A DNA stretch of 64,000 nucleotides from Nitrososphaerales archaeon. Lineage in GTDB: Archaea > Thermoproteota > Nitrososphaeria > Nitrososphaerales > UBA213. Positions 34,217 through 64,000 of the stretch are shown in pieces. The notes under the pieces were generated by a model that searched no databases, was not told the DNA's origin, and saw only the letters and a program-made list of their open reading frames with translations. A program made the translations under genes and the position numbers. The stretch lies in contig JAWCSA010000002.1 in the NCBI GenBank assembly GCA_038868975.1, forward strand, positions 8,059-72,058, given 5' to 3'. Numbering within the stretch: position 1 is the stretch's first letter; every line of letters starts with the position of its first letter.

Positions 34217-36337
34217 GTGCCAGTAGCCAAGCTGATGAAGGCAACACTTATTCTTCCTAGAGTAGAAGCATCGAGAGCAGTTAGCAGCCTAGCAGAGCTT
34301 GAATGGTTTCATCCACTGCCAAAAGGATCGGAATTCATAAACGTAGAACTTGATAACTTGTTATTGAAAGCGCAAAAATTGTTCCAATCGATTGATGAAG
34401 TTGTTAGGGCGCTTGAAATCCCTTTGGAAACTGGTGTGATGGCTACCATGTTCAAGGGAGCACCAAAGGGAAAGACAGAATTTGTTGTTGAAGACCTTGA
34501 TCATCTTGTTTCTGATCTGGAATCCAAATCCAAAGCTATAGTGGAAGAGGCCAGATCTCTTCTCAATGAACATGGATCTATTAAAAGATCGCTGGAAGAG
34601 CACCAAACACTACTGGACGCATTGAAAGTTGCATCAAGCATAAACCTCGATCTTAAAGCTATCAATACCTTGAAAAGGTTTCACGCAACTATGTTTATCG
34701 TTAATACCAAGGAAATACAGGAAATAGAAAGAACGCTTGAAGATCTACTTATCATAACAATGCAGTTGAATGAACTTAAGGTTGCGCTGGTTATCTTCGG
34801 GACTAGAGAAGACAGCGAAAGGATCGGCAAAGTGCTAAGGAGTTTCGATACACATCCATTCGTCATACCATCGCACCTACCACAGAATCCAAGTGAGGCC
34901 TATAAACAGGTAGAGCAGAGGATCAAGGAGCTGGGGAAGAAGAAGGAAGAGCTGGAAAAGAGTATAGAGAAACTCAAACTCAACATATCTACAAAGATTC
35001 TTTCTTTGCACGAAGGTGCTAGAGTTGCCAAAGATGTTTTGGAGACTATGAGAAAGCCCGGTGGTACGAAGAACTTTGCCGTTATTCAAGGCTACATACC
35101 AAGCATAATGGAGAAGAAGATGAAGAAACTATCGAAAGACTGGGTATGCATAATAGATGAGGTGAATGAATATGATAATAAAAAGGATGAACAAGGTGGG
35201 CTTCCGTCGCTGTTATCAAACACGAAATATCTCCGTACCTTTGAGGTCATAACAGCAACGCAGGGTATACCTAGGTACGGCGAAGTTGATCCCACGCCTA
35301 TGATTGCGTTTGTATGGCCACTCTTCTATGGTCTTATGTTTGGCGACCTTGGTCATGGTTTGCTGCTTTTCGGTTTGGGTATGTTACTTAGAACCCGAGG
35401 GCTGGGAGGCATAAGAACTTGGGGCACCCTAATTGCAGCAAGTGGTGCTGCTGCAGCCATGGCAGGTATGATAACTGGGGAATTCTTTGGGTGGCATATA
35501 CATAAAATTGCGGTGTTAAGTGATGTGCTGCACGACATTCCCTTCGTAGGTATACTGCAAGTTTCAGAGTTGAGTTTTGACCAAGTGATAATGGTGCTCA
35601 AAGTCTCCATAGCCATAGGCATCGTTCATCTAGTAAGCGCGTTTGTATTGAACATAAGGAGGAATCTGAGGGAAGGTAAGAAGCTGGAGGTTTACACTCA
35701 CAACATACCTATACTAGTAATGTACGGCGCGGTTGTTGCACTGATACTTGCAGCTATAGGATCTGGTTATGACATAATTGGAATGTTTGGAGTAACAGAC
35801 CGTGTTCATAATGAGCCTGTTCCATGGATCACTTTTATAGTTGGTGAATGGGCAACCGTAGAGGTTATTGCAAAGATCTCTGTTCCAATCTTGTTTGCTA
35901 TGATAGGGATCATGATGATGGGCCACATTATAGAGGAGAAACGTAGGAGGGCACACGGTCTGGAGACTGAAGGTGGCGGTATCATGGGAGCAGTAATTGA
36001 GATAGTGATGGTGCGAACAATGGAGCTACTCTCACATACAATAAGCTACAGCAGACTTGGCATCATGTTGCTTGTGCATGTAGCACTCTTGGTTACTGTT
36101 AATGACGCATACACATACAGTGCAAATAAAGGTGATATGGGCATGGCAATAGCCCTGCTTGTTGGAGGAAATATAGGAATTATTATGATCGAAGGTCTTA
36201 TAGTGTACATACAGGCAATAAGGTTGCATCTTTATGAATGGTTCCCGAAGTGGTATGGAGGAGAGGGAGTTGAATTCAAGAAGATCGTGCCCAAGATGCT
36301 TTACACCAGTTTACTCTGGGAGAAGAAGAGGAAATAG
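34217..36337 (+). CDS. atpI: A/V-type ATP synthase subunit I (a)
   Basis: 706 aa. Soluble N-terminal half, then a multi-TM C-terminal half with the conserved SYSRLG block. Confidence 0.85.
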   Translation: MPVAKLMKATLILPRVEASRAVSSLAELEWFHPLPKGSEFINVELDNLLLKAQKLFQSIDEVVRALEIPLETGVMATMFKGAPKGKTEFVVEDLDHLVSDLESKSKAIVEEARSLLNEHGSIKRSLEEHQTLLDALKVASSINLDLKAINTLKRFHATMFIVNTKEIQEIERTLEDLLIITMQLNELKVALVIFGTREDSERIGKVLRSFDTHPFVIPSHLPQNPSEAYKQVEQRIKELGKKKEELEKSIEKLKLNISTKILSLHEGARVAKDVLETMRKPGGTKNFAVIQGYIPSIMEKKMKKLSKDWVCIIDEVNEYDNKKDEQGGLPSLLSNTKYLRTFEVITATQGIPRYGEVDPTPMIAFVWPLFYGLMFGDLGHGLLLFGLGMLLRTRGLGGIRTWGTLIAASGAAAAMAGMITGEFFGWHIHKIAVLSDVLHDIPFVGILQVSELSFDQVIMVLKVSIAIGIVHLVSAFVLNIRRNLREGKKLEVYTHNIPILVMYGAVVALILAAIGSGYDIIGMFGVTDRVHNEPVPWITFIVGEWATVEVIAKISVPILFAMIGIMMMGHIIEEKRRRAHGLETEGGGIMGAVIEIVMVRTMELLSHTISYSRLGIMLLVHVALLVTVNDAYTYSANKGDMGMAIALLVGGNIGIIMIEGLIVYIQAIRLHLYEWFPKWYGGEGVEFKKIVPKMLYTSLLWEKKRK

Positions 36338-62006: not shown

Positions 62007-63209
62007 TTAACTTACAAGTATAGCTGTAACAGCATCTTCCTTGAATACATTCTTCACCACAGATGGCTGCACCGCAAGTGAAATCTTCTTTGTCCTTCCA
62101 TACCTTCCATGGCTTATGACAGGGGCGGAGATGAGCCCCAAAGTATCAAGAGAACTTACTATCATGCCAACACGCCTTTGGGTAACTGGCTCGAGTCCAA
62201 CCTTCCTGCAAAACTCAACATATCTATTAAACACATCTCCAGTGGATCCGTTCTGCGAAACCATTACGCTGTACACTATCAGCTTTTCATGTATTGCTAA
62301 GGAACGTAATGCTTCGCTTGCCGTATCCTGTTCAATCTTCTTTTCTGCAATCCTCACATGTTTTTCGTCAACATAGTCAGCACCCTCACGCTCTGCAACA
62401 TCACCAGCCACTCGTAGCAGATCAACAGCCCTTCTTGCATCGCCGTGCTCTGAGCCTGCCATGGCAGCACATAGGTTGATAGCCGCTTCCTCTACAACAC
62501 CATCATGAAATCCGGCTCTTGCCCTTTCCATCAAAATCCCCTTTAACTCCTGAACTGTGTAAGGAGGAAAGACTATCTCCTCTTCACTAAGGCTGCTGAG
62601 AACCCTAGGATCCAGAAACTCCTTGAAGTTCAAGTCGTTGGAAATTCCAATTATACCTAGGGAGCCTTTCTTCAATCGAGAGTTTGCCCTAGTCATTTCA
62701 TACAATATCTTATCACCATGTCTCTTGACCAACTCGTCTATTTCGTCAAGTACGAATACGGTGTTTATATCACGGTCATTTATGAAAGTAAGTATCTTTG
62801 CGAACAGATCACCAGATGCAAGACCAGTAGGGGGCAACCTTAGTCCAATCTTGCTACCTAGTTGAACAAGTGCCGTATACTCCCTACTACTTTTCGTATT
62901 TGCATATGCCAGCTTGACAGTAACGTTTAACTTGGATGCGTGCTCCTCCAAGCGCTTTAGCACATGTGTTGCAACTGCTGTCTTGCCTGTACCAGGTTTC
63001 CCATACAGGAACAAATTAGAGGCCCTCGTTCCTTTTAGAAGTGGAGATAGGGCCTCGCCTACAGCCTTCATTTCGTTTTCCCTGTAGAGCAGGCGGTCTG
63101 GGATATAGTCAGACCGGAGCACATTTCTGTTTCTTATGAGAGGCTTACCGGAGACAGCTTTTGTAAAAACATCGTTAAGTATGTCTTCGCCCAAGTAATA
63201 CACCCACAC
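62007..63209 (-). CDS. cdc6: Orc1/Cdc6 replication initiator
   Basis: Walker A GKPGTGKTA, Walker B VFVLDEID, and a C-terminal winged helix. GTG or TTG start. Confidence 0.9.
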   Translation of the reverse strand: MWVYYLGEDILNDVFTKAVSGKPLIRNRNVLRSDYIPDRLLYRENEMKAVGEALSPLLKGTRASNLFLYGKPGTGKTAVATHVLKRLEEHASKLNVTVKLAYANTKSSREYTALVQLGSKIGLRLPPTGLASGDLFAKILTFINDRDINTVFVLDEIDELVKRHGDKILYEMTRANSRLKKGSLGIIGISNDLNFKEFLDPRVLSSLSEEEIVFPPYTVQELKGILMERARAGFHDGVVEEAAINLCAAMAGSEHGDARRAVDLLRVAGDVAEREGADYVDEKHVRIAEKKIEQDTASEALRSLAIHEKLIVYSVMVSQNGSTGDVFNRYVEFCRKVGLEPVTQRRVGMIVSSLDTLGLISAPVISHGRYGRTKKISLAVQPSVVKNVFKEDAVTAILVS

Positions 63210-63754
63210 CAGATCTTCTTTTGCAAGTAATTAAGATTAATTATGATGAAGAACATACTATTAGCTTATTGACTTATAACTAGCCAAATCAACAATTGTT
63301 ACTAAACGTGTTAATGTTAACTTTTATTTATGTACAATTACTAAGGCAGATAACATCCAGCGGATCGTCAGGTGTCCGCCTCAGTTTGAATACCGCCGCT
63401 TTATGGGCAAATATACCTGTTATCCGGGTAGTAACACTGCGTTAACAAGATGTTAACGAAATAGAGAAATAGGGAGAAAATGACGCTTTTACTTCCAGCA
63501 GCGCGTTAAGATGGTTGTTAACAGTGTTAATACACATCTTAACACACCTACATTTCCACTGGAACACACTTTTTGTCCCTTTTTAACACACCTACATTTC
63601 CACTGCATGTTAACATGTTAACATGGTGTACACAATCTCACAGAAGCTTAAGAATAACGATCAAGTATGTTAACACTTTCTTCATTATCAAGCTTAAGTG
63701 TTAAGCTGTTAATGATATAATGCCAATTTGGCGCGCAAAAAAATTAGGATAGAA
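63210..63754. other. Candidate replication origin (oriC) adjacent to orc1/cdc6
   Basis: A noncoding 545-bp block. It has an AT-rich stretch (about 63230..63350), ORB-like repeats and many GTTAAC-type motifs. Confidence 0.7.
63539..63605. repeat. Two perfect 23-bp direct repeats TTAACACACCTACATTTCCACTG (ORB-like)
   Basis: Copies at 63539..63561 and 63583..63605. The reverse complement contains (C)CAGTGGAAATG. Copy 1 carries the full palindromic TTCCACTGGAA core known from archaeal origin recognition boxes. Confidence 0.75.
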
Positions 63755-64000
63755 ATGGACGATGGAGAGGGCGGCAAGTACTCACTCTCCGTCGAAGGGA
63801 ATGTAACGCGTGAGAAGATCCTAAAGGTCTTTGAACTCATGCAGTTGCTAGATATGGAACAGGTAGCCGATAATGTAGACAACTCCAAATCTGTAGGTTC
63901 AAGGATCTGGTCTCTAGTTGAGAATAGGTTCAACTTTGGCGATTTTACCTCGTCAGACCTCCTTGAAGCATATGAGGATCAATACAACGAGCCAGTCAAA
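63755..64000 (+). CDS. Hypothetical protein, 5' part only (runs off the right edge)
   Basis: The frame is open from ATG 63755 to the window end: MDDGEGGKYSLSVEGNVTREKILKVFELMQLLDMEQV... It is absent from the track because no stop falls in the window. Confidence 0.4.
   Translation, partial: MDDGEGGKYSLSVEGNVTREKILKVFELMQLLDMEQVADNVDNSKSVGSRIWSLVENRFNFGDFTSSDLLEAYEDQYNEPVK

Follow-up and report, generated by a model that had tools for sequence, protein, structure and literature searches.

An array of TTAAC boxes in a probable orc1/cdc6-linked replication origin of a Nitrososphaerales archaeon, with a candidate role as accessory sites for a second factor

The function of archaeal origins beyond the initiator Orc1 and its origin recognition boxes (ORBs) is largely unknown, and essentiality was first demonstrated for an accessory element, ucm/UBP, only in 2025 (PMC12141716). 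In Sulfolobus, ucm is a non-ORB motif in the middle of the duplex unwinding element (DUE); it is essential for the firing of oriC1 and is bound by UBP, an abundant beta-rich protein that touches MCM. Mutation of ucm changed origin firing without altering protein levels, and UBP, which has more than 300 genomic sites, is known only from Sulfolobales and Desulfurococcales; whether analogues exist elsewhere among the archaea is a question that the study poses explicitly (PMC12141716). The ucm consensus is TTATACAAAC (Ori-Finder-Arch preprint, 10.64898/2026.08.15.744077). Here, we analyzed a stretch of 64,000 nucleotides from a Nitrososphaerales archaeon, a soil-type thaumarchaeon (contig JAWCSA010000002.1, positions 8,059 to 72,058; referred to below as the window), in which a 533-bp gap (63195-63727) separates the orc1/cdc6 gene from a divergent gene for a protein of 126 amino acids, p126. 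The gap is very probably an Orc1-dependent chromosomal replication origin of the oriC1 type, judging from its sequence, and it contains 14 distinct (G)TTAA(C) boxes. We favor, at a probability of roughly 60%, a composite origin in which these boxes would be accessory sites for a second sequence-specific factor. By analogy, the boxes are most likely a counterpart of the ucm/UBP accessory element that is unrelated to it in sequence. The question of accessory origin proteins in other archaeal lineages, raised in the ucm/UBP work (PMC12141716), thereby becomes directly testable in two major phyla.

The array resembles ucm in being a conserved, lineage-restricted non-ORB motif inside an Orc1-dependent origin; the protein that binds ucm is small and not an initiator, and origin function depends on the motif. 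Unlike ucm, which is a single copy of about 10 to 11 bp in the middle of the DUE, the box measures 6 to 8 bp, is present in 9 to 15 copies, and lies mostly outside the DUE. The motif TTATACAAAC was not found in the gap, where its sole match has two mismatches, consistent with chance, and the presence of ucm in this origin was rejected. In comparison with the archaeal oriC1-type origins (Sulfolobus oriC1, Pyrococcus oriC, and Nitrosopumilus maritimus oriC), the locus shares the adjacent orc1/cdc6, polar ORBs of the TCCAGTGGAAAT..GG(T/G)GT type, an AT-rich stretch between candidate opposed ORBs, and extra distal ORBs. It differs from them in that its best ORBs are the distal direct pair, while those flanking the DUE are degenerate, in its G-string (GGTGTG instead of GGGGT), and in the second class of about 14 short boxes in the distal half. 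The box array is undescribed in the reviews, tools, and genome papers on archaeal origins that we consulted (PMC4010727, PMC5333045, PMC4164010, 10.64898/2026.08.15.744077), although mapping work on N. maritimus may mention such boxes, and literature searches on GTTAAC in archaeal origins and on thaumarchaeal or bathyarchaeal origin motifs returned nothing relevant.

The initial annotation had placed an origin next to an Orc1/Cdc6 gene, and both parts of this assignment were supported. The gene (62007-63194, minus strand, TTG start at 63194) encodes a protein of 395 amino acids that matches the NCBIfam model TIGR02928 with 381.7 bits (cut-off, 181.3) and contains the Pfam domains Cdc6_lid, Cdc6_C, and AAA. 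An NCBI protein named "orc1/cdc6" from a Nitrososphaerales archaeon metagenome-assembled genome (P0001) is 100% identical to it and has the same TTG start. Two perfect direct copies of the 23-mer TTAACACACCTACATTTCCACTG (reverse complement, CAGTGGAAATGTAGGTGTGTTAA) are located 44 bp apart at 63539-63561 and 63583-63605, exactly as annotated. No further copy was present in the window even at three mismatches, and none was found in 100 shuffles. The full dyad TTCCACTGGAA occurs once, at 63554, in the first copy, again as annotated. On the orc1 strand, the repeats read (T)TCCAGTGGAAATGTAGGTGTG and match 18 of 20 positions of the common archaeal ORB motif, TCCA[CG]T[TG]GAAA[TC][GA]AAGGGGT (PMC4164010, Table 1). 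A position matrix built from 29 ORBs, taken from relatives only, was scanned over the 128,000 positions of the window and ranked the two repeats first and second. These strong ORBs are designated ORB a (63539-63564, minus-strand reading TTCCAGTGGAAATGTAGGTGTGTT; score, 27.0) and ORB b (63583-63608, minus strand, ATGCAGTGGAAATGTAGGTGTGTT; score, 25.6). Their spacing of 41 to 44 bp is kept in relatives. The TTAA that ends each 23-nucleotide repeat is not conserved there; thus, the perfect length of the repeat probably reflects concerted evolution of two ORBs within one genome. The adjoining orc1/cdc6, the match of the ORBs to the published consensus, and the conserved positions of weaker ORBs (described below) together support the assignment of the gap as an origin.

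The initial annotation had also reported GTTAAC-type motifs at a density beyond chance, and all of its positions were correct. The motif ATGTTAAC is found on the plus strand at 63314, 63450, 63607, 63615, and 63667; other GTTAA(C/G/T) variants are found at 63310, 63441, 63505, 63517, 63526, 63700, and 63708, and TTAAC is present within each 23-nucleotide repeat. In the region of 63210-63755, GTTAAC occurs 7 times, whereas the remainder of the window predicts 0.12 (60-fold; P = 7e-11), and TGTTAA, counted on both strands, occurs 17 times compared to 0.52 expected (P = 3e-20). The window as a whole contains 21 copies of GTTAAC (13.4 expected from shuffles), and the motif is at chance frequency outside the origin. 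Pairs of boxes 6 to 13 bp apart were observed seven times in the gap and not once in the remaining 63.5 kb; within the 64-kb window, then, the boxes cluster at the origin only, unlike the many genomic sites of UBP. Chance or base composition as the source of the boxes was excluded by the shuffles, by the rest of the window, and by the flanks of more than 80 loci. Twelve of the 14 boxes fall beyond the AT-rich stretch, most of them in the half of the gap next to p126. Since boxes are also found far from the ORBs, and since the TTAA in the repeats is unconserved, the boxes do not belong to the ORB. The annotation had offered a second factor or an extended Orc box as explanations, an idea that the comparison with relatives strengthened.

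For a close comparison, we aligned the gap with five related loci whose Orc1 proteins are 77 to 86% identical to that of the window and which have the gene order PcrB, p122, p172, p126, about 520 bp of intergenic sequence, orc1, SpoIIM, and PAC2. In the alignment of the six genomes, 35% of the columns are invariant and fall into blocks, namely, the ORB cores, an ACACC-N4-GATC element, the AT-rich TAATAATAATTGA, the orc1-proximal ORB, and successive TTAAC boxes. Half of the TTAA cores (7/14) do not vary among the six genomes, compared to 9% of random 4-mers (P = 1e-4), so the conservation of the motif in related origins that the initial annotation had named as a check is found for half of the boxes. 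The three boxes GTTAAG, GTTAAC, and GTTAAT at 63505-63531 (minus strand; cores at 63506, 63518, and 63527; 9 to 12 bp apart) are all invariant, as are both TTAAC motifs of the tandem pair ATGTTAACATGTTAAC that abuts ORB b (63607-63622, minus strand) and the junction TTAAC-A-TCCAGTGG between box and strong ORB. The (TG)TTAA of the single GTTAAC at 63669-63674 (minus strand) is likewise invariant, and so is TTAACA at one box of the pair GTTAAGCTGTTAAT (63700-63713, minus strand). In the pair GTTAACAAGATGTTAAC (63441-63457, minus strand), TAACA and TT.AC are conserved at the aligned columns. The pair within the AT-rich stretch (GTGTTAATGTTAAC, 63308-63321, minus strand; cores at 63311 and 63317) is partly conserved as ATTAACAT.TTAA in three of the relatives (L082, L083, and L087). 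An Rfam search returned no family at the gathering score in the region or in the whole 64-kb window, and no tRNA, rRNA, or known small RNA; therefore, no known RNA explains the conservation of the gap. Small open reading frames in the gap (41 to 49 amino acids) were rejected, as the indels among the relatives are not multiples of three.

The boxes extend well beyond the close relatives. We examined a wide phyletic panel of about 80 Orc1 loci across the archaea (Orc1 at most 57% identical among the matches listed). Upstream of orc1, TTAAC was found 14 to 21 times in the family of the window (about 1.4 expected), 13 times in Nitrosotalea (0.5 expected), 18 times in Nitrosotenuis (1.3 expected), 12 times in Nitrosopelagicus (1.1 expected), and 14 times in another Nitrososphaerota genome (0.9 expected), and it was also enriched in Nitrosocaldaceae. 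The enrichment was weaker in one Nitrososphaeria metagenome-assembled genome, and within the panel, strong enrichment was confined to the groups listed here. The layout is homologous across orders: reading from p126 to orc1, a box pair close to the p126 start comes first, then isolated boxes and another pair that touches the first ORB; two or three ORBs in direct orientation follow, then further boxes, and finally an inverted ORB and the AT-rich tract. This architecture and the flanking genes are common to the window and four Nitrosopumilales loci (L013, L016, L022, and L056). Pooling 155 TTAA cores from ammonia-oxidizer origins yielded t-G/c/a-TTAAC-A as the consensus. Of the forms of the box, the 8-bp palindrome TGTTAACA is merely the commonest, and TTAACA is biased to read toward orc1. 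Thus, the enrichment of GTTAAC-type motifs was borne out, with the correction that the conserved core is TTAAC(A) and not ATGTTAAC.

No TTAAC array was present in the panel loci of non-ammonia-oxidizing Thaumarchaeota and Bathyarchaeia. An unbiased 6-mer count over the p126-orc1 gap of 30 Bathyarchaeia-type (non-ammonia-oxidizer) loci returned TGTGAA/TTCACA as the top word, ahead of ORB-derived words (163 copies versus 12.7 expected, present in 30/30 loci; P = 8e-118). TTCACA is a one-base variant of TTAACA; it lies in the same p126-proximal half, mostly in the same orientation and often in pairs 8 to 11 bp apart, and some Bathyarchaeia have kept GTTAAC as the first box beside p126. Neither TTAAC nor TTCACA was enriched at the orc1 loci of Sulfolobales, Desulfurococcales, Archaeoglobi, and Methanosarcinales. 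The suggestion that the boxes are specific to the lineage of the window therefore did not hold: they are common to all three orders of ammonia oxidizers and have a TTCACA counterpart in Bathyarchaeia. We conclude that the boxes are an old, conserved second element of the origins of Nitrososphaeria and Bathyarchaeia, of which the ammonia-oxidizer clade fixed the A variant, and that the array is real, ancient, and functionally constrained.

An element of this kind could in principle be read by Orc1 itself. The boxes would then be auxiliary low-affinity sites, half-ORBs recognized by the winged-helix domain of Orc1 that aid its spread or oligomerization in the way of the weak DnaA boxes in bacterial oriC. 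A single substitution separates TTCAC from TCCAC, the conserved arm of the ORB; boxes lie directly against the strong ORBs and alternate with them (as at the invariant box-ORB junction described above), and the ORB consensus of Methanobacteriaceae, TT[TA]CACTTGAAAT, includes TTCAC (PMC4164010, Table 1). The box consensus tGTTAACA, however, lacks the ORB dyad core TCCA..TGGAAA and matches the arm TCCAC at only 3/5 positions (4/5 for TTCAC), and it has neither the G-string nor the GGAAA arm, both of which Orc1 contacts; with the dyad core absent, the boxes were rejected as mini-ORBs. Ammonia oxidizers appear to have one Orc1, and we know of no second initiator in them, which would fit a single reader. 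Such a reader should make its sites co-vary, whereas in the ammonia-oxidizer ancestor the C of the boxes was replaced by A and the ORB core (A)GTGGAAAT..GG(G/T)G remained unchanged, and this difference points to a second factor rather than Orc1. Moreover, good ORBs occur without box enrichment at the orc1 loci of Sulfolobales, Archaeoglobi, and Methanosarcinales. We therefore consider recognition by Orc1 rather unlikely.

A purely transcriptional role was weighed as well, in which the boxes are operators through which a regulator, possibly p126 itself, controls the divergent p126 and orc1 promoters without a direct part in replication. The concentration of the array in the p126-proximal half fits this proposal, and so does the box pair at 63700-63713, which covers positions -28 to -15 relative to the p126 start, the expected place of a promoter and the position expected for autoregulation. 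In Nitrosopumilales, an equivalent pair lies 14 nucleotides before the p126 ATG, and winged-helix proteins with weak similarity to BlaI/CopY/MecI are typically autorepressors. Nevertheless, 9 to 15 sites over 400 bp far exceed the requirements of an operator at a promoter; ORBs lie in between the sites, one pair is situated in the AT-rich stretch beside orc1, and the conserved positions of the boxes are those relative to the ORBs and not to the promoters alone. Operators would also be compatible with an origin role, and control of transcription as the sole function seems improbable to us.

The sequence GTTAAC is palindromic over 6 bp and is known as a site of restriction-modification systems. 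The boxes might accordingly be methylation targets by which an orphan HpaI-type methyltransferase marks the origin for timing or sequestration, as the GATC clusters of E. coli oriC do with Dam and SeqA, and seven of the 14 boxes are full GTTAAC sites. The palindrome is not the conserved unit, though: its 5' base varies among G, A, and C at orthologous positions, GTTAAC accounts for only 47 of the 155 TTAA cores in ammonia-oxidizer origins, the Bathyarchaeia counterpart TTCACA is not palindromic, and GTTAAC outside the origin stays at chance frequency. This explanation is very hard to sustain. In other respects, the array is like the accessory sites of bacterial oriC (IHF, Fis, SeqA/GATC, and low-affinity DnaA boxes), which are short, clustered, conserved sites of non-initiators or weak initiators that shape or time firing; the differences are that they belong to another domain of life and involve unrelated proteins, and that the methylation analogy fails.

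A candidate for the second factor proposed in the composite reading is encoded at the edge of the array. The window contains the 5' part of the p126 gene (63728-64000, plus strand, TTG start at 63728), which runs off its end; the complete gene is readable on another contig (L081), whose Orc1 protein is identical to that of the window. The 688 homologs of p126 are all labeled "hypothetical", and no Pfam or NCBIfam family covers p126. Between Nitrososphaerales and Nitrosopumilales, p126 is about 55% identical (Orc1, about 48%). The structure was predicted for a protein 82% identical to p126 (P0122); the AlphaFold (AF2) model displays an N-terminal hairpin and helix followed by a C-terminal winged helix, with a predicted local distance difference test score (pLDDT) of about 90, and p126 is thus predicted to be a DNA-binding winged-helix protein. 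Its fold matches in the PDB were generic winged helices only (Fur, MecI, ArsR, and the C-terminal domain of Cdt1 at an E value of about 0.02), none of them significant, and no UBP entry was among the 50 matches listed. Whereas UBP is a beta-rich saddle whose gene has not been reported to be origin-linked, p126 is a predicted winged helix encoded at the origin. In this respect, the locus resembles WhiP at Sulfolobus oriC3 and the iteron/Rep systems, in which a winged-helix gene lies beside an array of presumed sites, with direct repeats in roughly helical phase. The p126 protein has no detectable homology to WhiP, Cdt1, or Rep, and its match to the Cdt1 C-terminal fold is no better than those to Fur, MecI, and ArsR; in contrast to iterons of 17 to 22 bp, the boxes measure 6 to 8 bp, and the origin retains full ORBs and orc1.

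In Nitrososphaeria and Bathyarchaeia, p126 is syntenic with orc1, and it is so at all loci that have boxes; a restriction of the p126 family to ammonia oxidizers was rejected, as tblastn places it beside orc1 in Bathyarchaeia. Loci with p126 have a median of 7 boxes (1.3 expected) and loci without it a median of 1 (0.9 expected), a difference that is significant (Mann-Whitney P = 2e-9) but confounded by phylogeny. The predicted recognition helix, LSxxSTYLSR, is almost invariant except for its third residue, and this residue follows the box type. With Thr at this position (37 Bathyarchaeia-type loci), 76 TTAACA versus 139 TTCACA boxes were counted (35% A-type); with Ala (9 loci of one clade), 48 versus 25 (66% A-type); and with Val or Ile (11 ammonia-oxidizer loci), 128 versus 5 (96% A-type). 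Fisher tests gave P values from 9e-6 to 1e-33, with the qualification that sites from one clade lack independence. Exchanging a Thr that faces a C:G pair for a hydrophobic side chain that faces a thymine methyl group would be chemically sensible. From sequence and model, p126 specifically is a tentative choice for the box-binding factor. Of similar standing, and less likely than the composite origin as such, is the fuller proposal that p126 is a shared origin component of Nitrososphaeria and Bathyarchaeia, always encoded at the margin of oriC, that binds a TT(A/C)ACA array beside the ORBs, with a C-to-A shift in specificity in the ammonia-oxidizer ancestor through Thr-to-Val/Ile in the recognition helix, and that constitutes a second lineage-wide origin factor, functionally akin to UBP or to a Cdt1/WhiP-like co-loader and unrelated to them in sequence.

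Two other unannotated genes accompany p126 beside the origin. The trio p122, p172, and p126 was observed at L081:1168-2513, in L082-L087, L089, L013, L016, L022, and L056, and at many Bathyarchaeia loci. The p172 protein has an N-terminal membrane helix, a coiled coil, and a C-terminal winged helix-turn-helix (wHTH) domain, with weak matches to HVO_A0261_N and HTH_27; a membrane-anchored wHTH protein of this kind could tether the origin to the membrane. In three loci of non-ammonia-oxidizing Thaumarchaeota (L001:3375-4001, L003:3381-4001, and L090:2326-3001), p126 lies upstream of orc1 in the same orientation, with few boxes between the two genes and ORBs on both sides, and the origin is rearranged.

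Besides the two strong ORBs, three weak ORBs, which the initial annotation had missed, were picked from the alignments. The third direct ORB (CGCTGCTGGAAGTAAAAGCGTCAT, 63480-63503, minus strand; matrix score, 4.6) is degenerate in the window, and a good ORB, cTCCAGTGGAAGgAAtGGgGT, is aligned with it in the three relatives L082, L083, and L087. An inverted degenerate ORB (ATCCAGCGGATCGTCAGGTGTCCG, 63355-63378, plus strand; score, 6.9; rank 18 of 128,000) is oriented opposite to the perfect ORBs; its ACACC-N4-GATC block is invariant in relatives, and in Nitrosopumilales a homologous inverted ORB, cccACACACC..TTCCACTCTAGC, adjoins the AT-rich tract. The orc1-proximal degenerate ORB (TTGCAAAAGAAGATCTGGTGTGGG, 63203-63226, minus strand; score, 4.1; fifth of 1045 intergenic positions) contains the block TTGCAtAAGAAGaTctGGT, which is invariant in relatives. 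Its Nitrosopumilales counterpart is clearly ORB-like (e.g., AAGGACTGGAAAGATAGGTGTGTG in L022), and it may double as a 5' untranslated region or Shine-Dalgarno sequence. The three sites are the next-best matrix matches of the gap (3 observed versus 0.30 expected; P = 0.004), the matrix scan having been made after they had been selected from the alignments.

The weak ORBs at 63203-63226 (minus) and 63355-63378 (plus), with scores of only 4.1 and 6.9, flank the AT-rich candidate DUE at 63227-63354, which must also hold the orc1 promoter. Its 40-mers have stabilities of -41 to -47 kcal/mol at 70 to 80% AT (window mean, -51.4), and stability within the region is lowest at 63210-63350, in line with the DUE near 63230-63350 suggested by the initial annotation. 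The AT-richest decile lies at the same relative place in 11 ammonia-oxidizer and 28 Bathyarchaeia loci. Relative to orc1, the candidate layout is ORB(-)/DUE/ORB(+), a pattern present in 67% of predicted CDC6-type oriCs (preprint 10.64898/2026.08.15.744077) and also seen in the Sulfolobus ORB3-DUE-ORB2 arrangement (PMC12141716). The initial annotation had found it puzzling that both full ORBs point the same way. They do, but an inverted ORB, although weak, exists; because the perfect copies are the distal ORBs and a weak opposed pair brackets the DUE, the puzzle is mostly resolved.

In the composite reading, Orc1 monomers would bind the two strong direct ORBs, the decayed third ORB, and the two weak ORBs of opposite polarity, and MCM loading and duplex opening would take place at 63227-63354, between the weak ORBs. 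Layered on this origin, the roughly 14 boxes of consensus t-G/c/a-TTAAC-A, mostly in pairs about one helical turn apart, would fill the orc1-distal half, interleaved with the strong ORBs and with one pair in the AT-rich stretch. They would bind a second protein that assembles the origin complex or controls it, for which p126, divergently encoded at the array edge and with its own promoter covered by a box pair, is the candidate. The analysis shows the sequence elements together with their enrichment, conservation, and distribution among lineages; we infer origin firing, the binding of Orc1, the binding of a protein to the boxes, and the identity of this protein from sequence comparison. The array is a concrete candidate for an accessory element in the ammonia-oxidizing Thaumarchaeota and in Bathyarchaeia, two large and ecologically dominant groups, and with it come a defined DNA motif, a one-base switch between lineages as a natural test of specificity, and a candidate family of 688 "hypothetical" proteins.

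Several observations weigh against this reading. The window stops 273 bp beyond the origin and includes one arm only, which makes GC skew uninformative. The ORBs that flank the DUE are weak in this genome, and a function in ribosome binding alone could account for the conservation of the orc1-proximal one. The AT-rich stretch is unexceptional, with a minimum of about -41 kcal/mol against a cut-off of -42.6 kcal/mol for the least stable 1%, and other intergenic regions equal it. The similarity of TTCAC to the ORB arm makes weak binding by Orc1 possible. With regard to p126, all fold matches have E values above 0.001 and are to generic winged helices, and its co-distribution with the boxes and the residue covariation amount to few independent events (the ammonia-oxidizer ancestor and the A-type clade), so that phylogeny confounds both. 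T-type genomes retain 35% TTAACA. Finally, p172 and p122 share the synteny of p126 to the same degree and are alternative candidates.

Further observations concern the ORBs. The copies of one genome resemble each other more closely than orthologous ORBs of different genomes do (window 63539-63608; L089:2735-2835; L084:2591-2660), the identical stretch measuring 23 nucleotides in the window, about 40 in the Nitrosocaldaceae locus, and 20 in L084, and the spacer between dyad and G-string varies by lineage (GTAG, GGAG, TGTG, or AAAG); the likeness within genomes suggests gene conversion or co-evolution with Orc1. The third-best matrix match in the window (ATACAGTGCAAATAAAGGTGATAT, 36115-36138, plus strand; score, 17.9) lies inside an open reading frame of 706 amino acids (34217-36337) and was judged a chance match. 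In the four Nitrosopumilales loci, the ORBs are without the left dyad arm, CTAGAGTGGAAATAAAGGGGT replacing TCCAGTGGAAAT, and CCAGTGGAAA, allowed one mismatch, had no match upstream of orc1. Because half of the dyad is lost, these ORBs are easily overlooked, and origin finders that rely on the consensus could miss them; the conspicuous box array would improve origin prediction in these phyla.

Conserved GATC palindromes were also observed: GTGATCGATCAC lies beside the p126 start in Nitrosopumilales (L013:3533-3545 and equivalents), TTGATCGATCG is found in the Nitrososphaerales relatives (L082:3560-3570; window 63654-63662), and a conserved GATC is likewise part of the inverted ORB. In one relative (L087:2840-2880), an ATGAT microsatellite of about six repeats is located inside the AT-rich origin stretch.

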